This document shows, piece by piece, positions 3,688 to 47,276 of a stretch of DNA of 64,000 nt. The position numbers and the translations under genes are program-made. Under the pieces are notes generated by a model, which worked only from the letters and a program-made list of their open reading frames with translations, was not told the origin of the DNA and did not search any database. This stretch comes from a phage: sequence record PX393110.1; one strand, 5' to 3'. How positions within the stretch are numbered: position 1 is the first letter of the stretch; every line of letters begins with the position of its first letter.

Positions 3688-4021
3688 CAGTCAGAAAGTT
3701 ACTGGAGATCAGGAAATCATCCAGAGCTACTTCTGTATTCTTAGGAGTATTGTCTAACTCCCACTCACCCACTCCCAGACGGATCTTAGCCACACCAGGA
3801 GCTATCTCTTCAATAGACAGCTTAGAGCCACCGATGATCTGGAGGCGAAGAGCATTTACAGCTACTGCATACCCAGAGAACGCAGTCTCTACCTGGTGAC
3901 GGAACTCCTGGTCTGAATTAACCTTAGCAGCGTAAGCAGCAGGTTCCATACCCAGTTGCTTAGCATACATCAGATGAAACATGTCCAGGTTAATCTTGTT
4001 ACCAGTAGTCTTCTTAGTCAT
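3677..4021 (-). CDS. hypothetical protein
   Basis: ORF track. GAGGAA RBS. Confidence 0.55.
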   Translation of the reverse strand: MTKKTTGNKINLDMFHLMYAKQLGMEPAAYAAKVNSDQEFRHQVETAFSGYAVAVNALRLQIIGGSKLSIEEIAPGVAKIRLGVGEWELDNTPKNTEVALDDFLISSNFLTAAV

Positions 4022-4520
4022 TTTCGATTTCCTCGGCAGTTACGCCAGTGATGTTTAAATACAGATCGGTCGGTAATTCTGGCAGGGTAGAGACATCCAG
4101 ATTCTCTACGTCCTTGGCCAGAGTTATGTGAGGAGAGTATTCCGCACTGATCTCAGACGGTACCTCCCCAGATGCACGGAGTCGATAGTTAAACGATTGT
4201 AGCAGATCGCTATCGAACGCCAGCACCAGGTAGTTAGCATTCTCACCGAAGATCTCATAGCGAGGATTCTTCAGATGAAGTTTGCTACCTACCAGATCAG
4301 CAATAGTTCCCTCATCCGGAGCACCAGTCCCCGGAGCATACATAAGGGTGCAGTGGTTATCGTGACCGGTATCGAAGTTAAGCTTATCATAATCAGCTAC
4401 TTCAGAGATAACCTGCTTAAGATTATCTATCCAGGCATCAGAGTCTGGACAGAATTTTACCGAGGAGTAACCCTCGTCCACGGACTGTACAAGTCCTAAC
4501 ACTACTTCAGCTTTATTCAT
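4014..4520 (-). CDS. 2H-phosphoesterase superfamily protein (LigT / cyclic-nucleotide phosphodiesterase-like)
   Basis: Two H-x-T/S-x motifs about 75 aa apart (NHCTLMY and PHITLAK), about 168 aa long. The ATG at 4520 lies 3 nt after the upstream stop. Confidence 0.55.
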   Translation of the reverse strand: MNKAEVVLGLVQSVDEGYSSVKFCPDSDAWIDNLKQVISEVADYDKLNFDTGHDNHCTLMYAPGTGAPDEGTIADLVGSKLHLKNPRYEIFGENANYLVLAFDSDLLQSFNYRLRASGEVPSEISAEYSPHITLAKDVENLDVSTLPELPTDLYLNITGVTAEEIEND

Positions 4521-4525
4521 TTTTA

Positions 4526-4825
4526 TCACCATGGCCATGGTAGTTTATTTTCGGGCTCCTGCCTATAGTAGGAGCATTTGATACCCAACGATTCCACAAT
4601 ACTTACAGGAATCTTATCAGTTACTTCAGAGTCTTGATAGATTGGTCCGAATACTGATACGTTTGGATCTTGCAACAGTTCAGATATTAATCCAGCCTCT
4701 TCATAAGTCTCGAAGAATGCTGCGGTGGTATCTGGATTACAGCCGAGACCGGTCCATGAGGTGTAAAACTCGTTTACTCCACAGAGAGCACCGTGCTCCT
4801 TATGCACCACTAAAAATCCCAGCAT
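4526..4825 (-). CDS. hypothetical protein
   Basis: ORF track. The start overlaps the RNase H gene end, so the exact start is uncertain. Confidence 0.45.
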   Translation of the reverse strand: MLGFLVVHKEHGALCGVNEFYTSWTGLGCNPDTTAAFFETYEEAGLISELLQDPNVSVFGPIYQDSEVTDKIPVSIVESLGIKCSYYRQEPENKLPWPW

Positions 4826-20497: not shown

Positions 20498-20807
20498 AGA
20501 CTAAACTCTGACCCGCATGGATGCGTACTGCATGGTTCTTGTTAGAGTTAGTCAGACGAATCCACTTACCTTCGTCTGTAGAGAATACCTGAGCAGTTAA
20601 GCCCAGGTAAGATACAGAAAGATTAGAGATAGAGTCGACAGTTACCGTACTATCTACCGGAAACTCTACCGATGAGCCAGCTCCAACAATGTAGCCACTC
20701 TTACGCAGCTTCATTGGAGCAATACGACTACTGTGCTGATCGTCAGCACCAATTGTCCGAGCGAACGAGCTCTCAACGTAAACAGTTTCAGGAATATTAA
20801 TCTGCAT
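20487..20807 (-). CDS. small beta-barrel protein, possibly dUTPase-fold
   Basis: ATG at 20807. FSTDEGKWIRLTNSNKNHAVRIHAGQSLV loosely parallels dUTPase motifs 3-4 (GVIDSDYRGE..l.N.....i..GdRIAQL). Weak call. Confidence 0.3.
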   Translation of the reverse strand: MQINIPETVYVESSFARTIGADDQHSSRIAPMKLRKSGYIVGAGSSVEFPVDSTVTVDSISNLSVSYLGLTAQVFSTDEGKWIRLTNSNKNHAVRIHAGQSLVYGN

Positions 20808-21396
20808 TGCCAATAGTCTCTTTAACCAGGTGCTCTATTGAACTACCATGTGCCATATGGAGAAGAGACTGGAGAGTACCCATCCATACATCATCACTCA
20901 CTTCGTCTTTGTACTTATTGAAGCAGGTACTGAAGATGTTGCGGCAGTTCTCCAGCTCGCTTTCGCCAAAGAAGATGTTACCCATGCTGAACTCAGTCAT
21001 GATCTCACGAGATACCGCAATAGCATCTGCAACTTTACAGATGAACTTAGCTTCGGCAGATGCAGGAGTGCGGAAAGTAGGAAGTACCTCTTCCCAGATT
21101 TCCTGCTCAACTTTATTCAGAGTCTCTTTTAACTCTGGGAAGCGAGCCTTAGCAGTGTAGGGGACATCACCTGTAAAGATCTCTGGAATGTCGTGAACCA
21201 ACGAGTACTGATTTACTTCCAGACCCTGCTCAGCAGTTAAAAATCCATCCATCACCAGTTTCTGAACAATCAGAGTAGAGTAGTAAGTAACTTCGAAGCT
21301 ATGCTCCGAGATAGTAGAGCGATGAGACAGTACTTGCTTACCTGCGAAACGATTCACGTTATTGGTACACACTGGTACCTTAAAAAGATCTTTCAT
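20797..21396 (-). CDS. HD-domain 5'-deoxynucleotidase (YfbR-like)
   Basis: TISEHSFEV ... LVHDIPEIFTGDVP match YfbR (ENVSEHSLQV ... LYHDASEVLTGDLP). Confidence 0.7.
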   Translation of the reverse strand: MKDLFKVPVCTNNVNRFAGKQVLSHRSTISEHSFEVTYYSTLIVQKLVMDGFLTAEQGLEVNQYSLVHDIPEIFTGDVPYTAKARFPELKETLNKVEQEIWEEVLPTFRTPASAEAKFICKVADAIAVSREIMTEFSMGNIFFGESELENCRNIFSTCFNKYKDEVSDDVWMGTLQSLLHMAHGSSIEHLVKETIGNAD

Positions 21397-21415: not shown

Positions 21416-21448
21416 AAAAATAAAGGTATGGAAGTTGCCTCCCACACC
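21416..21448 (-). terminator. promoter-proximal hairpin + U-run
   Basis: GGTGTGG...CCATACC followed by TTTATTTTT. The stem is 7 bp with one G-U pair that is valid only in minus-strand RNA. Confidence 0.4.
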
Positions 21449-21479
21449 TTAACAGCCTTTCGAGCCCTAAAAAGAGCGG
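21449..21479 (-). promoter_or_regulatory. class-1 motif copy 3
   Basis: CCGCTCTTTTTAGGGCTCGAAAGGCTGTTAA. It abuts the upstream stop (21480) and lies 52 nt before ATG 21396. Confidence 0.6.
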
Positions 21480-22553
21480 TTATTCCAGAATAAACGGAGA
21501 CTTATCCCCGAGGCGGTTCGCGACCCATTTCACGAATGGTGAATTAACCAGATGCTCGCACTGGATAGACATGTGAGCTCCAGTAGTCTTACATAGATAA
21601 TGAGCGCCTGCTAACCACATCATCACATCCAGAGTTGATCCTGGTTGGAACTCTCGACCAACATCTTCCATTACGTATTCTAGAATACTGTGATCGCTAT
21701 TATAACGAGAAGCAGCATCTTCAAGAGTAGCGATGTAATGCTGGAAGTAGGTACGGATCTTATACCAGGAATTAAGTGATCCGAGATCAATCGTAGTTAC
21801 CGGAGCTTCATTAATGTCGTCAACATAAGCTCGGATATTACTTACCTGCTTCTTGATGTTCGACACTTCCGGATACCAGTGGAGATCATCCGTCATCACC
21901 ACATAGTTGCCCATATCTACTTTGAGCATAGTTGCGATGATTTCCTGGATGATCGTGAACTCCACCAGATTAACGTTAGTCAATCCCCAGATTAGATCAT
22001 TACTACGGTTGAATACCGTGCAGTCCAGACCACCATTACGGTACTTAAACGATAGAGCAATGTTGCAGATCATATCTGCGGTATTGATGCTGCCAATGCT
22101 GTTTACCAGACCTACATCAGAATCACGGCTGGGATCGTGAATAGTAGCCACGCACTTACGGTTACCCAGGTCAGAACGGAGGCGGTCTGTTACAGTCTGG
22201 AGTTGATCGTAGTTATACAGACGCTCACCGTAAGCACCACGCCAGGTAACCATATCATCGCTAAACATCTTAGCGCGAGGAACCATAATCGACATCCAGT
22301 TATCGATTGCATAGCCACCAGACAGTACCCACAATACTTCCCCCATAATTCCGAGGATATTGTCTTTACGTTCTGGATGAGCCATCCAACGATTAATCGG
22401 ATTACTTAACTCAACTACAGCATGACCGATGGATACTACCGCCGAAGAGTTAACAGAAGTTCTGGACTTCTGCAACTCACCAGCCTTATCCATAGTATTG
22501 ATGCTGTTAACCAGGATTTCAGTATTACTGTTACCGCGAATTACCGAGATCAT
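21480..22553 (-). CDS. thymidylate-synthase-family pyrimidine dNMP hydroxymethylase/methylase homologue
   Basis: GEVLWVLSGG (ELLWFLQGD), YGERL, DQLQTVTDRLRSD..NRK (DQI..V...L..DP.SRR), catalytic-Cys segment DMICNIALSF, and NRSNDLIWGL (ThyA QRSCDVFLGL; T4 gp42 MRSNDVVFGF), DDLHWY. Extra C-terminal extension of about 100 aa. Confidence 0.7.
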   Translation of the reverse strand: MISVIRGNSNTEILVNSINTMDKAGELQKSRTSVNSSAVVSIGHAVVELSNPINRWMAHPERKDNILGIMGEVLWVLSGGYAIDNWMSIMVPRAKMFSDDMVTWRGAYGERLYNYDQLQTVTDRLRSDLGNRKCVATIHDPSRDSDVGLVNSIGSINTADMICNIALSFKYRNGGLDCTVFNRSNDLIWGLTNVNLVEFTIIQEIIATMLKVDMGNYVVMTDDLHWYPEVSNIKKQVSNIRAYVDDINEAPVTTIDLGSLNSWYKIRTYFQHYIATLEDAASRYNSDHSILEYVMEDVGREFQPGSTLDVMMWLAGAHYLCKTTGAHMSIQCEHLVNSPFVKWVANRLGDKSPFILE

Positions 22554-23272
22554 TTAGAGTCCTTACGCACTGAATCAATAGACTTAACTGCAGAGGACAG
22601 TAACTCCAGACGGGCCTCCTGAGGGATCATACCAGATGGCTCGTTCAGGATCATAATACCTTTACCAGTATTAGTAAAACGAGCTGTGATTGATCCAGGA
22701 TACACCGGATGATTCAGAGTTACAGAATTACACAACGCAGCACCGAATCGCTCCTCGTAGGCACGCATAGTTACCTTAAGGAGAGTAGAACTGACTGCTA
22801 CAGAGTATTCAGGATCAACAACACGGAAGTTATTGTCCTCAATACTCTTATCCTTCGTATTGAAGAACAGAGTCATGTTATAATAATCAATAGACTCGTT
22901 ACTGAGACGTAATGCCTCATCACGAGCTTCCTGGCTGGCAAACATACTGTTATGCAGCAGGAAGTAAACGTACGAATCGAATACCGCACGATCACTGACG
23001 ATCAACTCGCCACGATTGTAGGCATCCTTGAACATCTGAGTTCGCTGACGAATAAGACGCAGCTGGAACTCTACCGCTTCCATAGGATCTTCTACAGCTA
23101 AGCGCAGAATATCCATATGGGATGTTACTCCCAGAGGAAGATGGTCACGAGTCTGTACTGCACGGAAGGTACATTCGGTTGATTCTTCCCAACCTTTAGC
23201 CAGGGTAGATTTACCGGTACCCTGCGCACCAGACATAATTACACTGTAGCCTGGGATACTATAGTCTCTCAT
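22550..23272 (-). CDS. P-loop nucleotide (dNMP/deoxynucleoside-type) kinase
   Basis: P-loop SGAQGTGKST and DRAVFDSYVY (dNK/TMPK-like). ATG at 23272 with GGAGAG RBS. ATGA overlap with the next gene. Confidence 0.6.
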   Translation of the reverse strand: MRDYSIPGYSVIMSGAQGTGKSTLAKGWEESTECTFRAVQTRDHLPLGVTSHMDILRLAVEDPMEAVEFQLRLIRQRTQMFKDAYNRGELIVSDRAVFDSYVYFLLHNSMFASQEARDEALRLSNESIDYYNMTLFFNTKDKSIEDNNFRVVDPEYSVAVSSTLLKVTMRAYEERFGAALCNSVTLNHPVYPGSITARFTNTGKGIMILNEPSGMIPQEARLELLSSAVKSIDSVRKDSK

Positions 23273-23304
23273 TATTCTCTCCAATTAAGAATCTTTCCCA
23301 CATT

Positions 23305-23361: not shown

Positions 23362-24333
23362 CTAGCTAAACTTATACCAGCGAGGTCTCATACGGATCTC
23401 GTGATTCAGTTTATGTAGTTTCGAGAATTCGCAGAATGAGTTGGTGAACATCTGGCGAGTATAGAATCGCTCATCCTCTGGCATGAAGTGGAACCATTTC
23501 TCCGGTTCCCATGAATACCCGAAATGTGCACATATCTCTTTGATGTTCTGATACCACCATTCCACGAATACCTGATAACCACAGGGAGGATTCTGGTCAT
23601 TAATCATGTACCATACCCCATCCTGAGTCCCAGGTCCACATACGATAGCGTCATTATCTGTATACGCAGTCTCTTTAGAGTAGGACATAGTTGCCCAGCA
23701 TTGATATGCCATGAACGGACCTAATCCAGATACCTGTAACAGATGCTCGATAGCCTCGGTAGCGAACGGAGACTTCCATGCCCATAAGATAGGATCACTG
23801 TAGGTCTTCACCAGATAGGCTCTGGCAGCTACACTGTACTTAATATCCTCTGGACATACTTCATTAGCCATCTTAACTGCTGTGCTAAGGAAGTAGGCAT
23901 TTGATTGCTGTGGAGCGGTGAACGGAGGACCATCCTCATAACGACGTAGCTCTTCGCGACCCATGTTATGTATGTCGTCATAGCTCATCTCATAAAGAGG
24001 AAGGACTCTGCGGAAGCGATCCATATATGAATCACCACGGTTTATCATCTGGAAGAGTACTACATTAAGTGCTTTACTCTCCCAGCTTAAAGAATCGTTC
24101 TCCAGAATGTTCTTAATAGCCCACACTGTTTCACGATCGTGCTTACGGAACACGTTAGTGAATTTGAACTTACTAATCCACTTATGTTCCGTCCACGGAG
24201 GAGGCAGCTTAAGCACCTCCTTCTTATAATAAACCTCTGTACGTTCACGGTTATACTCCACATACTCCCGTAACTCCTCAGGATTTATCATCCCAAGGAG
24301 TCCTTCGTAATGCAGACCTAACGGTGTTGACAT
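23362..24333 (-). CDS. hypothetical protein inside the modification island
   Basis: ORF track. TAATG coupling to the upstream glycosyltransferase. Trp/Tyr-rich. A DNA base-modification enzyme (for example pyrophosphorylase-type) is suspected from context only. Confidence 0.35.
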   Translation of the reverse strand: MSTPLGLHYEGLLGMINPEELREYVEYNRERTEVYYKKEVLKLPPPWTEHKWISKFKFTNVFRKHDRETVWAIKNILENDSLSWESKALNVVLFQMINRGDSYMDRFRRVLPLYEMSYDDIHNMGREELRRYEDGPPFTAPQQSNAYFLSTAVKMANEVCPEDIKYSVAARAYLVKTYSDPILWAWKSPFATEAIEHLLQVSGLGPFMAYQCWATMSYSKETAYTDNDAIVCGPGTQDGVWYMINDQNPPCGYQVFVEWWYQNIKEICAHFGYSWEPEKWFHFMPEDERFYTRQMFTNSFCEFSKLHKLNHEIRMRPRWYKFS

Positions 24334-25412
24334 TAAAGAATACCTTCTTTGGTAAAGTAGTCGATTACTTCATCCTGAAGTTCTTGTGCGTAATCCTTGC
24401 GCAGATACAGATTCTCATACTGATGTTTCAGCAGAGCATCACGATCTTTCAGTTTCTCTGCAATCTCCGCATTACTGGAGACGATCAGAGGAGCCAGCAG
24501 CTCTTCGGGGACGCCGCTCCGGATTATTGTTCCGGCAGCATCTTTATCCACCAACATCAGAGTACCAGAGCTCAGGTATTCATAATAACGGTTAGGTGGG
24601 CTGGTATAGAACGAGTTACTAGAGTTCCAGTCTTCAATAAGCAGTACCGCTGCGTATTTAGCCACTTCATCCAGCATCTCTGACAGCTTAAACTTAGGCA
24701 GCCAGTTAATAGGAGCAGCAGGCCCCAGCCACTTACGTTCTTTAGGATCCAGCTCTTCCCAGTTTTCCTGCTCGTAGCCGTCAAATCCAGCAAGACCACC
24801 AGTATGTTTAGCGATAGACATCTGAGCTTTGTAGCTAGGCACCGACATAAACAGTTCCAGACCATCCTGCTGGGAGAAGTACTGAGTGAACTTATGGAAG
24901 CGACCTTCACGAGCAGCACCGTAATACAGCAGGCTATTGTCTGGTTTATCAGATGAGCCGTAGCGAGGCTTACGACCAGGAACGTAGGTAAGACGGTTCC
25001 AGTTAATGTGGTGATAGTTCTCTTCGCTAGGGGAGTACTGATTACCCCAGGAAGTACGCTCGAATGCTGCTACTACTTTAAATGTCGTAGCTGCTGTGAT
25101 GTGTCGCCACTGCGGACCCTGGATACGCATACGTGATGAATAATCTTGACCAATCCAGTAAAACTTAGCTCCGAGGTCCGCCTGGTCTACCCAGAATTTA
25201 TACATCTCATCGCGGAACTTACAGAAGGTAGGAACACCATTGACGGCGATGATCACGTCATATTTGGTGCCATCTTCCATAGCCTTAACAAACTTAGGAG
25301 TATCATCCAGCAAGTCCGCCTGAAGTCCGTAGGCTAACCAGGATGCCAGAGTGTTACTGGCGATGATGGATTTATCGCTGCATGGCGAAAAGTTAGTTAC
25401 TGCAATTTTCAT
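24333..25412 (-). CDS. GT-B glycosyltransferase resembling T4 DNA beta-glucosyltransferase
   Basis: From memory of T4 BGT: MKIAVTNF (MKIAIINM), YDVIIAVN (YDRLIVVN), LLYYGAAREGRF (VIYGGSFRSGQR), AAVLLIEDWNSSNSFYTSPPNRYYEYLSSGTLMLVDKD (AALIIGDKNYNDNFITLRVWETMASDAVMLIDEE). Same length class (359 vs about 351 aa). Confidence 0.6.
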   Translation of the reverse strand: MKIAVTNFSPCSDKSIIASNTLASWLAYGLQADLLDDTPKFVKAMEDGTKYDVIIAVNGVPTFCKFRDEMYKFWVDQADLGAKFYWIGQDYSSRMRIQGPQWRHITAATTFKVVAAFERTSWGNQYSPSEENYHHINWNRLTYVPGRKPRYGSSDKPDNSLLYYGAAREGRFHKFTQYFSQQDGLELFMSVPSYKAQMSIAKHTGGLAGFDGYEQENWEELDPKERKWLGPAAPINWLPKFKLSEMLDEVAKYAAVLLIEDWNSSNSFYTSPPNRYYEYLSSGTLMLVDKDAAGTIIRSGVPEELLAPLIVSSNAEIAEKLKDRDALLKHQYENLYLRKDYAQELQDEVIDYFTKEGIL

Positions 25413-25440
25413 ATTTAATTTCTCCGTAGGCTGTCACAAT

Positions 25441-25470
25441 GTAACAGCCTTTTAGCTCATCAAAGAAGCG
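25441..25470 (-). promoter_or_regulatory. class-1 motif copy 5 (variant)
   Basis: CGCTTCTTTGATGAGCTAAAAGGCTGTTAC, 28 nt before ATG 25412. The upstream stop lies inside the motif. Its 3' block forms the hairpin AGGCTGT/ACAGCCT. Confidence 0.5.
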
Positions 25471-26494
25471 AATTAGCTGATGCCCAACTCAGCCACTTAT
25501 CATTGAGATCAGTTAAGTAGGAATAGTCTTTGTTTAATCCGAATACCGTACGGTTAGTTCCATCGAACTTCATTACCCCAGCACCAGGAGCTCGGATAAT
25601 TGCATCTTCGGTAGCCGTACAATACTCTTTCAAGTATTCCTGGATGTTGGGACGAATACGACGGAACGAGCTATCTGCAGAGTCATAGTGGAACATATCT
25701 GCACAATGCCACTGTACGTAGGACTTATCTGGACGGCTAAGCAGCTCATTACGAGTTACCATATCTTTCGGAGAGTAGCCTAGCTTAGCTACGGTGACTT
25801 CGTGAATACCACCGCCATTAGAAGAGGTGTCCATTAACCAGTTCTCATCCCAGTAGAACGAGCTACCAGTACCGGTTACCTGGCCCACTTTCCATCCCAT
25901 CGCCATACCTTTAAACAACAGGTAGCAATCCTCACCTACAGTGAGTTGCTGGAAGGTCTTATCGAACAGCCAGAACATCTTCTCGCTAGTCTTGACCATA
26001 ATACCCAGGTCAGTAGCCGGAGCAGTGTTATTATGGGACTGACGATCGCAGAGTTCAACAATCTTGTAGTTACGGTTCTTGAAGCTACGGACGAACGCCA
26101 TCTCAAACTCAGATCCCTCGAAGTCGATAATGGACCGATCCAGATGGAAGATATCGTCGGCGAACCAGACATCATCATCCACGAAGTAGCAGATGTCTGG
26201 GCACCAGTCCTGCTTCTCCATTACAATCCATGCTTTATCCAGAGCATGGGCACGGATTTCTCCGATTACCGGATTTTCGTACTTAGGGCTATGACAGAAA
26301 TTAAATTGCTCATCCCCACCAAACTGCTCTTCCAGAATTGCCTTATCTTCTTCGGAGGCATCCTGAATAAAGTAGAAGAAGCGATACTCAATAGAGTCGT
26401 CAGTCTTTTTAGCATCTTTGAACGACTGAATCTGACGGAGTACCGACTTCAGACGATGATAGGTTGGGATGATAAAAGCTACTTTGGTGGTCAT
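25460..26494 (-). CDS. GT-A (GT2-like) glycosyltransferase
   Basis: N-terminal VAFIIPTYHRLKSV and the DXD-type motif FVDDDVWF. Confidence 0.65.
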   Translation of the reverse strand: MTTKVAFIIPTYHRLKSVLRQIQSFKDAKKTDDSIEYRFFYFIQDASEEDKAILEEQFGGDEQFNFCHSPKYENPVIGEIRAHALDKAWIVMEKQDWCPDICYFVDDDVWFADDIFHLDRSIIDFEGSEFEMAFVRSFKNRNYKIVELCDRQSHNNTAPATDLGIMVKTSEKMFWLFDKTFQQLTVGEDCYLLFKGMAMGWKVGQVTGTGSSFYWDENWLMDTSSNGGGIHEVTVAKLGYSPKDMVTRNELLSRPDKSYVQWHCADMFHYDSADSSFRRIRPNIQEYLKEYCTATEDAIIRAPGAGVMKFDGTNRTVFGLNKDYSYLTDLNDKWLSWASANSLL

Positions 26495-26500
26495 AATTAT

Positions 26501-27112
26501 TTATCCAATTTGACGAACTAAGCGAAACCCTTCGGCGTACGGCCACTGGGCGGAATATCCACGTAAGGTGGCTAGGGCTAAGATACTCTGGGTATCTCGG
26601 TCTGACTTAATCTGGGAGTCGAATCGTCCCATAGCCTGGCACTTACACTCAATATCGTCCTTATTCAGACGCTCGAAGTAATTAGGTTCCATCTGACCGA
26701 ACTGGGTCAGGGACTCGGCATACTCATATTCCAGGATAAGCCAGTTATACGCTCGGAGAGCTACACGAGCAGCATGATTAACTAGTTGATGGTCCTGGTG
26801 TAGGCTACTGAACGGAATATAGACTACATCCGGCCTGATTTTAGCAACATAGTCCGCAATATCCTTAGCCAATTGCGGAATATCCTTCTGAGTCATACCA
26901 TCGCCTGTGGAGGCATCGTTACGCTCCAGGCAATGTACTTCTTTGATATTCGGATAGACACCGAATGCTGCTTCGGCTTCGCCACGACGGGTCTCGTCCG
27001 GAGCAGTTACTTCGAGGATGAAGAATTGGTCATCGCGGAATTTGCTCATAATACCTCCGCAACCCAGAATCTCATCATCGTGATGTGGGCTGATAATCAG
27101 TCGTGACTTCAT
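26501..27112 (-). CDS. PIG-L/LmbE-family N-acetyl-sugar deacetylase
   Basis: IISPHHDDEILGCGG (family motif PHPDDE..G.GG) and the downstream SLHQDHQ metal-binding motif. Confidence 0.75.
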   Translation of the reverse strand: MKSRLIISPHHDDEILGCGGIMSKFRDDQFFILEVTAPDETRRGEAEAAFGVYPNIKEVHCLERNDASTGDGMTQKDIPQLAKDIADYVAKIRPDVVYIPFSSLHQDHQLVNHAARVALRAYNWLILEYEYAESLTQFGQMEPNYFERLNKDDIECKCQAMGRFDSQIKSDRDTQSILALATLRGYSAQWPYAEGFRLVRQIG

Positions 27113-27129
27113 TATTAATCCTCGCTACA

Positions 27130-27163
27130 CAAAAATGGGGTTAGGCCGTAGAGACCTAACCCC
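27130..27163 (-). terminator. promoter-proximal hairpin + U-run
   Basis: GGGGTTAGG-N9-CCTAACCCC followed by ATTTTTG. It lies between class-1 copy 6 and ATG 27112. Confidence 0.45.
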
Positions 27164-27179
27164 GTACGCCTCTGACACC

Positions 27180-27210
27180 TTAACAGCCTTTTAGGTCATC
27201 AAACAGGCGG
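27180..27210 (-). promoter_or_regulatory. class-1 motif copy 6
   Basis: CCGCCTGTTTGATGACCTAAAAGGCTGTTAA, 67 nt before ATG 27112. The BCCT stop lies inside the motif. Confidence 0.55.
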
Positions 27211-28581
27211 AGTTTCCTTAGCCAAGAATACTTTAGGTACAAAGATCTTGAGGAACCCGAATAGAATACACAATACCCCAATCAGTACCGGAACAGCCGA
27301 TACAGCTACCAGAGTCTTCGTTACAGTTACTACGTCGCCACCTGCCCAGTTAAGTGCAGCAGCAACTACACCCATGCTTACAATCCAGAATACACGAGTT
27401 CTAGGAGCGGTCATGGACTCTACCGTAATACCTGCTGAGTCATGACCTGTAATAAAGAACAGGATCACAGACACGAGGGTAATTACCGAGAATATCCATC
27501 CGCCTGGGAAATTAGCCAGAAGCTGGAAGATATCCTGAGCACCATGTTGTAGACCAGCTACACCGAATACGGTAAACCAGACGTTACTGATGATGGTAGG
27601 GAACAGTACACATCCGAGGATCAGTTCGCGAATAGTACGGCCGTAAGAGATACGTGCCACAAACGCTCCGACGAATAATGCCCAACCTACCCAGGCTGCA
27701 TAGTAAGCATAAGGCCAGCTAGCCAGCCATTGCTTCTCTTCAGCAGTACTGCCGATGTTTACTGACATAGGAATAATCTGGAGCAGATAGCTACCAGAAT
27801 AGGTGATGGTCTTCCAGAGGTATTCGAAGAATGTACCACTTACAGCAACGAATGCCATAATAGATAGAGCTACGATTACATTATATCTGGATAACCACTT
27901 AACCCCACGATCGACACCAGTTACGGCACTAAGTACAGTACCCAGAGTCAGGAGCGCGATAATGGTGTAAGGACCAACATCCACTCCCAGGAACTCTTTA
28001 AATCCGGAACTGATCGGGCCTACTGCGTAGACGAACGACAGGGTTAAGCCTATGATGGTAGAGAAGAGTAAGCTTATCGTATTAAGGTTATTCAGAGCTC
28101 GGGACTTGAATAACTGATTAAGCGGACGGTCTTCACCACGTACATGCAGTAAGTACCCGAATGCCACCCCTACGACTGCATAAACTGCCCATGCGTTAAG
28201 TCCCCAGTCAAAGAAGGTAGTTACCATATTCTGACGTTCGGACATACCCTCCTGCTGATGGTACATAGGTTCGAGTACACCATAATAAATCATGGATACA
28301 CCCATACCGGTACTAAACATCATGGAGTAATAGGTAAAGCGATTATATTTCGGAGCACCTTTACCCAGCTTAATGTTACCATGCTTGCTGAATACAAAGA
28401 ATGCCAGGAACGCTAGGAAGATCAGCGAAGACCAGGTAAATATGAATCCATACTGAGATATGAATACAGACTTACTCCAGTCCATTACAGCACCAAACTG
28501 GGTGGGAGCTAACATAATGGCGAGTATGATACCCACCGTTACTAGCACCGTCCCCCAGGTAACTACCTTTGAATCTGACAT
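27199..28581 (-). CDS. BCCT-family (betaine/carnitine/choline-type) transporter
   Basis: Polytopic membrane protein. SWPYAYYAAWVGWALFVGAFVARISYGRTIRELILGCVLFP aligns with the BCCT signature region (BetP [41 protein letters not shown]). Confidence 0.8.
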   Translation of the reverse strand: MSDSKVVTWGTVLVTVGIILAIMLAPTQFGAVMDWSKSVFISQYGFIFTWSSLIFLAFLAFFVFSKHGNIKLGKGAPKYNRFTYYSMMFSTGMGVSMIYYGVLEPMYHQQEGMSERQNMVTTFFDWGLNAWAVYAVVGVAFGYLLHVRGEDRPLNQLFKSRALNNLNTISLLFSTIIGLTLSFVYAVGPISSGFKEFLGVDVGPYTIIALLTLGTVLSAVTGVDRGVKWLSRYNVIVALSIMAFVAVSGTFFEYLWKTITYSGSYLLQIIPMSVNIGSTAEEKQWLASWPYAYYAAWVGWALFVGAFVARISYGRTIRELILGCVLFPTIISNVWFTVFGVAGLQHGAQDIFQLLANFPGGWIFSVITLVSVILFFITGHDSAGITVESMTAPRTRVFWIVSMGVVAAALNWAGGDVVTVTKTLVAVSAVPVLIGVLCILFGFLKIFVPKVFLAKETPPV

Positions 28582-28584
28582 TGA

Positions 28585-29493
28585 TTATTCCTCAATTACG
28601 CCCTTAGCGATTAACTGGCGACGGACGTATGCGTAGCCAGCAGGTGAAGTAGCGAGGACGATGTCCGCACTACGGAAGTTGGTTTCGATATAGAAGCACT
28701 CCTGAAGATCCCGCGTACAGAAGAGCTCAGTGCTCATCATACCCTCGCGTACGTTACATGCGTCTGCAACGAATTGCGCAACATCTTCGAAGTGGTCTAC
28801 CGAATGACTATAGCCGAATCCACGGGCATCAGTAGATATAACGTAGTTATGGCAGTACGGAGTGAAGTCAGTATCTTCGTAGGATTTACCCTGGATAGTG
28901 AAAATATCTGCATAATCCTTGAACCCGCTCGGGCTAACCAGAAGATCCCAGGCAACTACCATACCGTCGATAACATCTGCTTGAAGTACCAGAGAAGTAG
29001 TATATTCGTCCGGCGCCTTATCACAGACCAAAATTGGGGAGTCCCCCAGAAGGTCCGACATAGTGCCTGCACCCTTGCCCCCGTGAACACGATCACGGCG
29101 TACAAACGCCTCCTGAGGCTTCTGGTACAGTCTAAACGACGGTACAATCAGCGAATCAGGCATAGTTCCCAGATTAGCTTCGGAGCGAAGGCAGGATAAT
29201 TGGTCAGCTTTAGACCACGTACTTTCGATAGCGTGCAGATCGTTACCGATTTTGGTATAGATGTAGCTTTCCGGATTGCGGTACTTACCCTGATTCAGCT
29301 CTTCGATAACCGAGTCGAAATAAGGAAGTCGTACTGATCCCTCACGAGGAGCAGTTAACGCTACTGAACCATGCTTGGTATGATCCTGATCAACTACCAT
29401 AACCTGGTCCAGACTTACACCCATCTTAAGAATCTGGGATAGTGTAGCTGCTGTGTGGTTAGTGCAGCCAATCATCAAATCTAACTTCTTCAT
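28585..29493 (-). CDS. ATP-grasp-like ligase
   Basis: Gly-rich loop RVHGGKGAGT and the C-terminal CFYIETNFRSAD (E-x-N-x-R Mg-ATP motif of ATP-grasp enzymes). Moderate support. Confidence 0.45.
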   Translation of the reverse strand: MKKLDLMIGCTNHTAATLSQILKMGVSLDQVMVVDQDHTKHGSVALTAPREGSVRLPYFDSVIEELNQGKYRNPESYIYTKIGNDLHAIESTWSKADQLSCLRSEANLGTMPDSLIVPSFRLYQKPQEAFVRRDRVHGGKGAGTMSDLLGDSPILVCDKAPDEYTTSLVLQADVIDGMVVAWDLLVSPSGFKDYADIFTIQGKSYEDTDFTPYCHNYVISTDARGFGYSHSVDHFEDVAQFVADACNVREGMMSTELFCTRDLQECFYIETNFRSADIVLATSPAGYAYVRRQLIAKGVIEE

Positions 29494-29520
29494 TTTAATT
29501 CCTCAGTTAACTTGTACAAC

Positions 29521-29550
29521 CTAACAGCCTTTCGAACCCTAAAAAGAGCG
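29521..29550 (-). promoter_or_regulatory. class-1 motif copy 7 (variant)
   Basis: CGCTCTTTTTAGGGTTCGAAAGGCTGTTAG, 27 nt before ATG 29493. Confidence 0.5.
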
Positions 29551-29564
29551 AAATAATAGATATC

Positions 29565-29586
29565 TAGCCACCTCGTAAGATGGCTA
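29565..29586 (-). terminator. hairpin after methyltransferase gene
   Basis: TAGCCA-N10-TGGCTA followed by an AU-rich tract, upstream of class-1 copy 7. Confidence 0.3.
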
Positions 29587-29594
29587 TGTATATA

Positions 29595-30335
29595 TTACTT
29601 TAATTCGGAGAGATCTGCTATCTTCACCTTAGCTGTTACATCCCAGATTCCTTCACCAAATCCGGTATCTTCCAGCAGCTTAGGCACTTCACGTTTCTGT
29701 ACCTTAGACTGCTCGTACTTAAGCAGAGGAATATTACCGGTCTTATCCGATTGATCCCACAGATAAGTAGCAGCACCAATGTTATCGAACAGTGCGAGAT
29801 CTGGATTAAACTGGGTAAGGAGTCGGCAGTCCCAGTGAGATTTATGTTCCTCGAAAGGATTAGTCTCCGTACCACGCTGACGATACTCGTAGTTAGGAGT
29901 ACCGATCACGATTTTAGCCTTAGACTGGAATAGCTTAGACAACACCATAAGCCCATCTTCGCTATCCAGATGCTCCAACACATCTAGCCAGATAATAGTG
30001 CCGAATTTATCCAGCTCTTCAATAGGAAGATCTTTCAGCAGTTCAACGATATTGCAGATGTAGATATCGCTATATACATTTACACTGCCTTTGATGTAGT
30101 CTTCGCAGATGTCCAGACCTGTGATCTGACCTTCGAATCCTGCGTTACGGAGAGCTAGACCGATCTCTCCACGACCTAATCCCATATCCAGGATTGGCCC
30201 GGAGATAATTTCGTTACGGAGCATCCATTGGAGAAAGTGCTTCTGGACTAAGTAGGAGGTACCTCCGTTGCCCAGTGAAGCCTTCGTGACCTTAGTACCA
30301 GGAACGAAGTTACACTCGATATGTTTACCAAACAT
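29595..30335 (-). CDS. class I SAM-dependent methyltransferase
   Basis: Motif I ILDMGLGRGEIGLAL, acidic motif II GLDI, and IIWLDVLEHL. Confidence 0.7.
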   Translation of the reverse strand: MFGKHIECNFVPGTKVTKASLGNGGTSYLVQKHFLQWMLRNEIISGPILDMGLGRGEIGLALRNAGFEGQITGLDICEDYIKGSVNVYSDIYICNIVELLKDLPIEELDKFGTIIWLDVLEHLDSEDGLMVLSKLFQSKAKIVIGTPNYEYRQRGTETNPFEEHKSHWDCRLLTQFNPDLALFDNIGAATYLWDQSDKTGNIPLLKYEQSKVQKREVPKLLEDTGFGEGIWDVTAKVKIADLSELK

Positions 30336-46848: not shown

Positions 46849-46982
46849 TAATTAGGGACCCGATTATTCCACTTAGCTGCCATCCGTTCGGGTCAACACA
46901 GATCGTTCCAGGTCTTAGGCATCATACCAGACCGTTTCAGTACACTCGGATTATTAGTTCCCGGTGACCATTTAAAGATGGT

Positions 46983-47055
46983 GGCCCATACTGGTTTCGA
47001 ACCAGTGACCAATCGATTATGAGTCGACTGCTCTCACCACTGAGCTAATGGGCCG
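46983..47055 (-). tRNA. tRNA with CAU anticodon (Met elongator or Ile2/lysidine type)
   Basis: Hand-folded cloverleaf: acceptor GGCCCAT/ATGGGCC, D arm GCTC..GAGC, anticodon arm GTCGA-CTCATAA-TCGAT, T arm ACTGG-TTCGAAA-CCAGT, discriminator A. CCA is not encoded. Confidence 0.85.
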
Positions 47056-47199: not shown

Positions 47200-47276
47200 T
47201 GGTACTCCCTACAGGATTCGAACCTGTGACCAATAGCTTAGAAGGCTACTGCTCTATCCAGCTGAGCTAAGGGAGC
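47200..47276 (-). tRNA. tRNA-Arg (UCU)
   Basis: Hand-folded cloverleaf: acceptor GCTCCCT/AGGGAGT, D arm GCTC..GAGC, anticodon arm GTAGC-CTTCTAA-GCTAT, T arm ACAGG-TTCGAAT-CCTGT, encoded CCA. Confidence 0.85.

Follow-up and report, generated by a model that had tools for sequence, protein, structure and literature searches.

A divergent thymidylate synthase homolog encoded beside thymidine-hypermodification genes of a phage is predicted to be a dUMP hydroxymethylase

Introduction

Conversion of dUMP to 5-hydroxymethyl-dUMP (5-hmdUMP) is the usual first step when phages swap thymine for a modified base. The window analyzed here, a stretch of 64,000 nucleotides of phage DNA (PX393110.1), encodes a protein of the thymidylate synthase (TS) superfamily, and the question raised by this locus is which nucleotide the enzyme accepts, dUMP or dCMP, and whether it adds a methyl or a hydroxymethyl group. 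A sequence-only reading had held that neither could be told from the protein. We find that individual active-site residues speak to both choices, and that the gene very likely encodes a deoxyuridylate hydroxymethyltransferase (dUMP hydroxymethylase).

Results

A TS homolog distinct from ThyA

The ATG start codon of the TS homolog overlaps the stop codon of the upstream gene as ATGA (Table 1). The gene is 99.3% identical at the nucleotide level to a “putative thymidylate synthase” of phage IME392, and the GenBank label in both IME392 and EP_H11 is thymidylate synthase. Membership in the TS family, proposed earlier from the catalytic cysteine in the motif DMICN (residues 160–164), is borne out by the match to the Pfam family PF00303 (Thymidylat_synt; 46 bits against a cutoff of 24.3, E = 4.7e-12, residues 21–239) and to PHROG 3676, “thymidylate synthase” (E = 7e-71). 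The motifs RSND (183–186) and GLTNVN (190–195) listed in the same reading are present in the translation, and the motif set together with the C-terminal extension is far above chance. The protein is nevertheless no ordinary ThyA, as had been suspected: it passes none of the six NCBIfam ThyA equivalog models (29–43 bits against cutoffs of 108–405) and has an aspartate, Asp160, in place of ThyA Leu143. A search of PDB sequences yielded the cytidylate hydroxymethylase MilA as the best match (3e-13), with TS at 6e-5. No second TS or ThyX was detected among the 36 ORFs of the window scanned against Pfam.

Table 1 Features of the TS homolog locus (positions in the window)
Feature	Position	Strand	Basis
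TS-superfamily CDS, predicted dUMP hydroxymethylase (5-hmdUMP synthase), 357 aa	21480..22553	minus	ORF, Pfam PF00303, PHROG 3676
TS-fold catalytic core, residues 1-245	21819..22553	minus	AF2 pLDDT mostly 80-96; Foldseek
D160-M-I-C163-N164, catalytic Cys163 and Asp160 at Cys-3 (hydroxymethylase signature)	22062..22076	minus	Alignments; PMC6400193, PMC13326640
R183-S184-N185-D186, equivalent to EcTS R166-S167-C168-D169	21996..22007	minus	Alignments; PMC13326640, PMC5175136
G190-L-T-N193-V194-N195 loop	21969..21986	minus	Profile alignments to EcThyA and MilA; MAFFT
Asn195, base-specificity residue, equivalent to EcTS Asn177	21969-21971	minus	Profile and MAFFT alignments
C-terminal helical domain, residues ~246-357	21483..21818	minus	AF2; fold matches; dN/dS
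Terminator-like hairpin, 12-bp stem and T run, just 3' of the TS homolog stop	21423..21450	minus	Consensus scan only
HD-domain YfbR-like 5'-deoxynucleotidase, 199 aa, directly downstream of the TS homolog	20797..21396	minus	Pfam PF12917, 54 bits
P-loop kinase, 244 aa, stop overlaps TS homolog start	22550..23284	minus	Pfam AAA_28, 38 bits; PHROG “thymidylate kinase”
aGPT-Pplase clade 1 / HMUDK_hel protein, 323 aa, thymidine-hypermodification marker	23362..24333	minus	Pfam PF18723, 121.7 bits
Upstream putative modification region: 359-aa and 344-aa orphans, PIG-L-family deacetylase, BCCT transporter, 302-aa protein, weak SAM-methyltransferase-like protein	24333..30335	minus	Profile searches; L014 conservation

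Active-site residues predict the substrate and the product

Most of the ThyA active site is retained. The counterparts of ThyA Glu58, Tyr94, Arg21, Arg166 and Ser167 are E72, Y108, R31, R183 and S184, and those of Arg126'/127', His207 and Tyr209 are R132/K133, H225 and Y227, with Lys133 being a conservative replacement of arginine; these equivalences come from alignment and the AF2 model rather than from a ligand-bound structure. Asp160, Cys163, Asp186 and Asn195 are each invariant in all 102 aligned relatives. Methyl-forming and hydroxymethyl-forming enzymes differ in the residue that precedes the catalytic cysteine by three positions (Leu143 in ThyA, Asp145 in T4 dCMP hydroxymethylase, T4dCH; PMC6400193, PMC13326640), and because Asp160 of the TS homolog aligns with this position, the product is predicted to carry a hydroxymethyl rather than a methyl group. 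The substrate is likewise predicted to be dUMP because Asn195 occupies the ThyA-177 position. The earlier view that substrate and reaction are unreadable does not hold at these two positions. TS homologs have recently been shown to produce 5-hydroxy-dCMP, and the 5hodCMP synthases are marked by D169N (PMC13326640); since Asp186 aligns with ThyA Asp169, the TS homolog is not expected to be a 5-hydroxylase. With respect to the sugar, Ala176 of MilA represents the ribose-type position and a Ser184-type residue the deoxyribose type (PMC5175136), and in the profile alignment Ser184 and Arg132 of the TS homolog are deoxyribose markers, as opposed to A176 and K133 of MilA.

One further signature element of T4dCH, Ser/Thr two residues before the catalytic tyrosine, is missing (Gly106-Ala107-Tyr108). 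It looks specific to dCMP enzymes, judging from the alignment, because it is also missing in the SPO1-type, PhiW-14, ViI-like and M6-like homologs.

A one-residue insertion sets the alignment register

The sequence-only reading gave either Val or Asn of GLTNVN as the specificity residue. A register without a gap from RSND does set Val194 opposite ThyA-177 and gp42-179, but three independent alignments (profile versus EcThyA, profile versus MilA, and MAFFT) all place ThyA Asn177 or the MilA aspartate on Asn195. The TS homolog and the clade of long phage TS homologs have one additional residue between the conserved glycine and the specificity asparagine, and the loop is one residue longer than in ThyA, T4 gp42 and MilA. 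In both MAFFT and HMMER, gp42 came out ungapped across the Gly-Asn loop, with Asp179 opposite Val194. We rejected this placement: the D+8 spacing of gp42 is also that of ThyA and MilA, and these two align with the gap. The Val/Asn ambiguity is, on these alignments, best explained as an artefact of a clade-wide one-residue insertion. One relative, P0007, has Asp at the specificity position and lacks the insertion. In other members of this clade, the specificity asparagine should be sought nine residues, not eight, after the RSxD aspartate, and the residue at Cys-3 tells methyl from hydroxymethyl.

The C-terminal domain is a family feature

The extension noticed earlier past the TS core is real, at about 110 residues (~246–357); it is, however, not peculiar to this gene, being common to MilA and the phage homologs of 323–407 aa. 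In the AF2 model, it forms helices at 263–283, 288–300, 307–324 and 339–351, and its Trp343 is invariant in the family. Foldseek aligns the full-length model with MilA (356 columns, TMq 0.71), as opposed to ~240 columns with ThyA structures (TMq 0.49), and full-length matches that include the extension were obtained among the BFVD predicted structures. Where ThyA has its C-terminal tail, which closes over the folate, the TS homolog has the helical domain. At the level of tblastn, the domain is too diverged to align with the ViI-like copies. The core and the extension are both under purifying selection, with a dN/dS of 0.10 for the C-terminal domain in the comparison with EP_H11. By analogy with MilA, the helical domain is probably a structural domain of the clade located away from the active site.

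Relatives with 5-hmdU-derived DNA

Among phages, the protein is closest to its counterparts in ViI-like Ackermannviridae (41% identity over residues 9–240), followed by those of RP13 and Ab1-TPeters (32–36%) and by PhiW-14 gp230 (33%), which is annotated as deoxyuridylate hydroxymethyltransferase; the SPO1-, CP-51- and M6-type homologs also belong to the clade. The DNA of ViI and M6 contains 5-hmdU-derived bases (PMC5889632, PMC8989533). RSND shows no variation across the 102 aligned clade members; the PhiW-14 enzyme has RSGD. The match of this motif to T4 gp42, to which the sequence-only reading drew attention, is exact, but given the invariance in the clade, we rejected RSND as a dCMP marker. 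A sub-branch consisting of the ViI-like, RP13 and Ab1-TPeters homologs shares Ile162, Leu112 and the GLxNVN loop with the TS homolog, and no residue of the aligned active site is unique to the 357-aa protein. The IME392 copy is listed in the literature as a presumed 5-hmdUMP-forming enzyme. Sequence comparison places the TS homolog as a divergent member of a well-known phage enzyme family, with its function predicted.

The genomic neighborhood

The TS homolog is the last gene of an operon-like unit that also holds the aGPT-Pplase1 homolog and the P-loop kinase. The consensus scan that detected the hairpin downstream of its stop codon gives 14 sites in the region against 7.2 +/- 2.8 expected. 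Homologs of the P-loop kinase were found only in IME392, EP_H11, Acinetobacter phage Ab1-TPeters and Ralstonia phage RP13, adjoining a TS homolog and/or an HD gene. The kinase is probably a dNMP (5-hmdUMP) kinase; it may instead be a divergent DNA 5-hmU kinase. A tblastn search with this protein failed to retrieve the known 5-hmU DNA kinases from ViI, M6 and PhiW-14. A recognizable 5-hmU DNA kinase of any of these three types was not found, in agreement with bioRxiv 10.1101/2025.03.26.645540.

The aGPT-Pplase1 homolog, across 90% of its length, is about 25% identical to a protein of ViI-like phages (the aGPT-Pplase family is described in PMC5889632, Table 3). The arrangement TS homolog followed by HD is also seen in Yuavirus PAC9, L013, Ab1-TPeters and L014, and the longer order, HMUDK_hel ... 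TS homolog–HD, is found again in unrelated contigs of phages. The link of the TS homolog to genes for thymidine hypermodification or dT exclusion recurs in L011, L013, L014 and PAC9. The relative L014 shares the whole block that begins with the BCCT gene and ends with the HD gene, and the IME392 annotation includes a dCTP deaminase and a dUTPase. The 359-aa orphan (24333–25412) has homologs, among 5.8 billion proteins, only in IME392 and in one relative with 75% identity; its match to Glyco_trans_1_2 (E = 0.017) is below threshold, and its AlphaFold model, built from a 3-sequence alignment, has a pLDDT of 42 and is unusable. It is not a paralog of the 344-aa orphan. A phmmer search of three neighbors of no assigned function against PDB sequences gave nothing meaningful.

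Discussion

Proposed pathway

Several lines of evidence converge on a dUMP hydroxymethylase: clade membership, the active-site code, the deoxyribose markers, the failed ThyA equivalogs, the match to MilA, the gene context and the purifying selection on core and extension. The chemistry that we infer would start with the attack of Cys163 on C6 of dUMP, the uracil being recognized by Asn195 and the phosphate held by Arg31, Arg183 and Ser184 along with Arg132/Lys133 of the partner subunit. The one-carbon unit of 5,10-methylene-tetrahydrofolate would be transferred to C5, and elimination of tetrahydrofolate would leave an exocyclic methylene. Instead of a ThyA-like hydride transfer, water activated by Asp160 would add to this methylene, yielding 5-hmdUMP and tetrahydrofolate. 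The product would then be phosphorylated, probably first by the adjacent P-loop kinase, and the 5-hmdU nucleotide would replace thymidine in DNA via the phage family-A polymerase. The HD nucleotidase could help to deplete thymidine nucleotides by removing dTMP/dNMP from the pool. Elsewhere in its genome, IME392 encodes a dCTP deaminase and a dUTPase that could help to supply dUMP. Once in DNA, 5-hmdU may be elaborated by the aGPT-Pplase1 homolog and further genes of the operon.

Alternative explanations

An ordinary thymidylate synthase, serving phage DNA synthesis by forming dTMP and dihydrofolate, would account for the Pfam match, the GenBank label and the asparagine at the dUMP-specificity position. 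We consider it highly unlikely, given that the water-excluding Leu143 is replaced by Asp160, ThyA Trp80 falls opposite a gap and Trp83 opposite Phe97, the folate-closing tail has given way to the helical domain, every ThyA equivalog cutoff is failed, and the protein groups with hydroxymethylases while its gene adjoins thymidine-hypermodification genes. The aspartate at Cys-3 is also compatible with a hydroxymethylase acting on dCMP (or CMP), like T4 gp42 or MilA, and such an enzyme would fit the RSND motif identical to that of gp42 and the best PDB match. An activity of this kind is extremely improbable: the specificity residue is Asn, not Asp, in 102 of the 102 clade members, and the corresponding D179N substitution lowers the activity of T4dCH ~3600-fold (PMC6400193); RSND is shared with phages that have 5-hmdU-derived DNA; P0007, a relative with Asp as its specificity residue, lacks the loop insertion; and the neighboring genes are concerned with thymidine, not cytosine, modification. 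Against the gp42 type in particular stands Gly106 in place of the Ser/Thr before the catalytic tyrosine. The MilA type, CMP hydroxymethylase, does not fit Asn195, Ser184 and Arg132 in place of Asp, Ala176 and Lys133 (PMC5175136), and the RB69 gp48 type, 5-hydroxy-dCMP synthase (Asn at 169 and Asp at 177), does not fit Asp186 and Asn195 (PMC13326640).

A TS-fold enzyme might also reach another outcome at C5, with a nucleophile other than water, by 5-hydroxylase-type chemistry, or as the first step towards a base hypermodified at the nucleotide level. Such a nucleotide-level hypermodified base has been reported for SP-15. This phage is one of those that have an SP15/YerA41/RP13-like DNA polymerase, and very large thymidine modifications occur in some members of that group (PMC12686479; bioRxiv 10.1101/2025.03.26.645540), the operon contains orphan genes of no assigned function, and there is the precedent of TS homologs that make 5-hydroxy-dCMP (PMC13326640). 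These outcomes are nonetheless improbable considering that Asp186 is kept where the 5-hydroxy synthases have Asn, that all catalytic residues are those of the aligned hydroxymethylase clade, and that the unusual ones (Ile162, Leu112 and the GLxNVN loop) occur in the ViI-like, RP13 and Ab1-TPeters homologs as well.

Implications

With dUMP hydroxymethylase as the predicted function, this group of E. coli phages probably has a non-canonical thymidine in its DNA, which matters for sequencing, restriction, cloning and use in phage therapy. The conserved neighboring genes, including the phage BCCT transporter, are more intriguing than the TS homolog itself, and this largely uncharacterized set could encode a new DNA modification. 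A speculative and rather unlikely scenario, based on the conserved gene arrangement only, is that the enzyme supplies 5-hmdU for an undescribed thymidine hypermodification, the side-chain donor for which would be imported by the BCCT (betaine/choline/carnitine-type) transporter of the phage. Its attachment and tailoring would fall to the aGPT-Pplase1 homolog, the PIG-L-family deacetylase, and the methyltransferase-like and orphan proteins. If true, this would be the first phage that imports a building block for its DNA modification.

Comparison with known systems

The phage dUMP hydroxymethylases (SPO1 gp29, PhiW-14 gp230, and those of ViI-like phages, M6/YuA-like phages and SH-Ab 15599) have the same TS fold and C-terminal helical domain (323–407 aa), Cys-Asn at the nucleophile, Asp at Cys-3, Asn after the loop insertion and RSxD, and are likewise encoded near aGPT-Pplase/HMUDK and HD nucleotidase genes. 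Identity with the TS homolog is just 24–41%, and its sub-branch is set apart by Ile for Pro before the cysteine, Leu for Trp after YGxR, and GLxNVN for GAYGAN. PDB searches found no structure of a dUMP hydroxymethylase. MilA, the CMP 5-hydroxymethylase of Streptomyces rimofaciens (PDB 5b6d, 5jnh), is the best solved-structure match by both sequence and fold, and the sole matched one with a comparable C-terminal helical domain. It also has Asp at Cys-3, at ~20% sequence identity, but differs in the cytosine-type specificity residue, the absence of the loop insertion and the ribose-type residues.

T4 gp42, the dCMP hydroxymethylase, shares RSND, the Cys-3 aspartate (Asp145, the proposed activator of the substrate water; PMC6400193) and the lack of the ThyA C-terminal tail, and differs in having Asp179 (dCMP) and the Ser-x-Tyr signature, and in its length of 246 aa without the helical domain. 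Against the family profile, gp42 scores 33 bits and E. coli ThyA 97 bits. ThyA has the same fold and the equivalents of the catalytic Cys and of Glu58, Tyr94, Arg21, Arg166, Ser167, Asp169, Asn177, His207 and Tyr209, and uses dUMP, the substrate predicted here. In the TS homolog, Leu143 is replaced by Asp, Trp80/Trp83 are not conserved, the closing tail is absent and one residue is added before the specificity asparagine; the predicted products are 5-hmdUMP and tetrahydrofolate, as compared with dTMP and dihydrofolate for ThyA.

Base specificity of the thymidylate synthase homolog

The 357-aa thymidylate synthase (TS) homolog encoded in the window is a real gene: its ATG, preceded at about 9 nt by AAGGA, shares ATGA with the stop codon of the gene before it, and the product matches Pfam Thymidylat_synt (46 bits; cutoff 24.3) and PHROG 3676 'thymidylate synthase' (E 7e-71). 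The translation contains D160-M-I-C163-N164, R183-S-N-D186 and G190-L-T-N193-V194-N195, along with the remaining TS catalytic residues (R31, E72, Y108, R132/K133, H225, Y227) and about 110 residues beyond the TS core. What the sequence-only reading had described (the family, the three motifs and some 100 extra C-terminal residues) is thus correct; it had considered base specificity and reaction unreadable.

The specificity residue is located eight positions after the RSxD Asp in E. coli ThyA, T4 gp42 (dCMP hydroxymethylase) and MilA (CMP 5-hydroxymethylase of Streptomyces rimofaciens), a register that falls on Val194 here, hence the earlier hesitation between Val and Asn. In contrast, all aligned long phage TS homologs (ViI-like, PhiW-14 gp230, SPO1-like, CP-51, M6-like, RP13, Ab1-TPeters and metagenomic relatives), like the window protein, carry a conserved Asn at +9 instead of +8, so this clade has a one-residue insertion. 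In the clade profile, Asn177 of ThyA falls on the clade Asn ('RSCDVFLGL-PFN'), and a profile of 102 relatives puts the MilA Asp in the same column ('RANDAFRGAVS-D'); the clade-specific loop insertion thus accounts for the apparent ambiguity. Asn195 is invariant (102/102). RSND, previously noted to match the T4 enzyme, is equally invariant, and other dUMP-type homologs differ in its third residue (Gln in ViI-like, Gly in PhiW-14, Cys in ThyA), which rules it out as a cytosine marker. The ribose preference of MilA is set by Ala176 and Lys133 (PMC5175136); these positions are occupied by Ser184 and Arg132, deoxyribose-type residues that, together with Asn195, point to dUMP as the predicted substrate. 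A useful contrast is P0007, a 301-aa metagenomic relative in the same broad family that combines an Asp specificity residue with Cys-Thr in place of Cys-Asn and no loop insertion, and that probably belongs to the dCMP type.

Methyl or hydroxymethyl transfer

In the ternary complex of T4 dCMP hydroxymethylase, Asp145, three residues before the catalytic Cys, activates the substrate water, and D145N is inactive; the TS counterpart is Leu143 (PMC6400193). A 2026 study codes the same active-site positions: at ThyA-177, Asn denotes dUMP and Asp dCMP; at ThyA-143, Leu denotes methyl and Asp/Glu hydroxymethyl; at ThyA-169, Asp denotes a folate one-carbon product and Asn a 5-hydroxy product (PMC13326640). 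The alignments place Asn195, Asp160 and Asp186, all clade-invariant, at these three positions, so that the predicted code reads dUMP and, through Asp160, hydroxymethyl: the reaction can be read after all. In agreement with this reading, ThyA Trp80 is opposite a gap and Trp83 opposite Phe97, the ThyA closing tail is missing, and the protein scores below the cutoffs of all six NCBIfam ThyA equivalog models. One part of the T4 signature, a Ser/Thr at position -2 from the catalytic Tyr, is absent (Gly106); the PhiW-14, ViI-like, M6-like and SPO1-like proteins have Gly or Ala in this position, and we take the Ser/Thr to be specific to dCMP enzymes.

By homology to TS and T4 dCMP hydroxymethylase, Cys163 would attack C6 of dUMP, the CH2-THF methylene would be transferred to C5, and departure of THF would leave an exocyclic methylene, to which Asp160-activated water would add, yielding 5-hmdUMP and THF but no DHF. 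After phosphorylation this product would replace dT in the DNA, where the aGPT-Pplase1 homolog and neighbours may elaborate it.

The C-terminal extension

The AlphaFold2 model (102-sequence alignment; pLDDT 83.9, pTM 0.87) predicts C-terminal helices at residues 263-283, 288-300, 307-324 and 339-351. Full-length BFVD fold matches are phage TS homologs of 359-381 aa, all clade homologs are 323-407 aa long, and Trp343 is invariant; the extension is therefore not a peculiarity of this gene. Codon comparison with EP_H11 gives a dN/dS of 0.10 for extension and core alike, which shows purifying selection on the extension, and against an 84% relative the extension has a dN of 0.22 and the core one of 0.06. 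Taken with the family-wide lengths and fold matches, this constraint identifies the extension as a structural domain that is typical of the family and evolves faster than the core.

Gene neighbourhood

The TS homolog is the final gene of the second of two units bracketed by three strong intergenic terminator-like hairpins (14 sites in the scan against 7.2 +/- 2.8 expected); genes for primase, helicase and family-A DNA polymerase follow the HD gene.

Features of the window, upstream to downstream along the minus strand for the neighbourhood, then elsewhere
Feature	Coordinates	Strand	Evidence
Terminator-like hairpins	30434-30413; 27163-27137; 21450-21423	-	hairpin scan
SAM-methyltransferase-like protein	29595-30335	-	weak match, below Pfam cutoffs
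302-aa protein	28585-29493	-	no family match
BCCT (betaine/carnitine/choline) transporter, full-length	27199-28581	-	Pfam, 309 bits
PIG-L-family (GlcNAc-type) deacetylase	26501-27112	-	53 bits
Orphan, 344 aa	25460-26494	-	no family match
Orphan, 359 aa	24333-25412	-	no family match
aGPT-Pplase1 / HMUDK_hel	23362-24333	-	122 bits
P-loop kinase	22550-23284	-	
TS homolog, 357 aa	21480-22553	-	ORF call, Pfam and PHROG matches
HD YfbR-like 5'-deoxynucleotidase	20797-21396	-	
Family-A DNA polymerase, 1099 aa	14547-17846	-	Pfam domain limited to residues 766-1001
Phosphoesterase-ATPase protein, 921 aa	34385-37150	-	
Borderline anti-CBASS Acb1 match	4014-4538	-	27.6 bits (cutoff 27)
tRNA-Met (CAT)	46979-47054	-	
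tRNA-Arg (TCT)	47200-47276	-	

HMUDK_hel ... TS homolog - HD is also the gene order of an M6-like Yuavirus and of two unrelated metagenomic phage contigs, and a 75-84% relative, L014 (Logan SRR21194222 contig; TS homolog 84% identical), retains everything from BCCT to HD. In L014 (contig positions 3750-4406), the stretch that separates the topoisomerase genes from the ~300-aa gene preceding BCCT has a differing gene set, including a weak phosphatidylserine-decarboxylase-like protein, and looks like a variable 'tailoring' cassette.

Homologs of the P-loop kinase are detectable in four phage records only: it adjoins the TS homolog in IME392, EP_H11 and Acinetobacter phage Ab1-TPeters, where the HD gene completes the trio, and the HD gene in Ralstonia RP13, where the TS homolog lies several kilobases from the pair. 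The co-occurrence of all three genes in Ab1-TPeters and RP13 suggests that the kinase is part of the nucleotide-pool module, most likely as a 5-hmdUMP kinase. It shows no BLAST-level similarity to known 5-hmU DNA kinases. The dCTP deaminase and dUTPase annotated in IME392, both outside the window, would supply dUMP. A Pfam scan of 36 window ORFs found no second TS and no ThyX.

The BCCT transporter, encoded within the putative thymidine-modification region, does not reach any of the NCBIfam equivalog cutoffs that would point to a substrate. Close copies occur only in IME392 and EP_H11 (phage database) and L014; the remaining 'phage' matches, with identities under 31%, resemble host-derived fragments. 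The PIG-L-family deacetylase and the SAM-methyltransferase-like protein that flank it could be base-modification tailoring enzymes. For the 359-aa orphan, a search of 5.8 billion proteins yields just two homologs; a glycosyltransferase hint stays below threshold (E 0.017), and the AF2 model is unusable. It is this conserved gene set, above all the transporter, that merits follow-up; the TS homolog itself is of low interest.

Elsewhere in the window, the long N-terminal part of the DNA polymerase fits the SP15/YerA41-like subfamily (bioRxiv 10.1101/2025.03.26.645540). The 921-aa single protein combines calcineurin-like phosphoesterase (Mre11/SbcD-like), SMC/Rad50-like ATPase and zinc-hook regions, an apparent nuclease-ATPase fusion, and both tRNA genes lie in a ~2-kb stretch without long ORFs.

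Alternative activities and relationship to known enzymes

Some different C5 chemistry is improbable, given that the active site contains no residue unique to this protein and, for a 5-hydroxylase in particular, that Asp186 argues against it. Slightly less probable still is an ordinary TS: Asp160, the loss of both Trp residues and of the closing tail, the scores below the equivalog cutoffs and the surrounding genes all contradict it. A dCMP or CMP hydroxymethylase is the least credible of the three, considering the invariant Asn195 and the putative thymidine-modification context.

Two earlier papers deal with relatives of this phage. The gene is 99.3% identical at the nucleotide level to that of Escherichia phage vB_EcoM_IME392 (MH719082, 116 kb) and 94.9% to that of EP_H11, and both records label it (putative) thymidylate synthase; the respective proteins, AXY86077.1 and WBU87640.1, have been listed, as a presumed role, among those needed for 5-hmdUMP (PMC12686479, Table 1). 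Thymidine modification has been inferred for these phages from an aGPT-Pplase gene, with a 5-hmU DNA kinase undetectable in them (bioRxiv 10.1101/2025.03.26.645540). In Foldseek searches, MilA aligns with the model across 356 columns (TMq 0.71), whereas ThyA structures match across only ~240 (TMq 0.49). The TS homolog is predicted to be a divergent dUMP hydroxymethylase, from a phage enzyme family that is already known.
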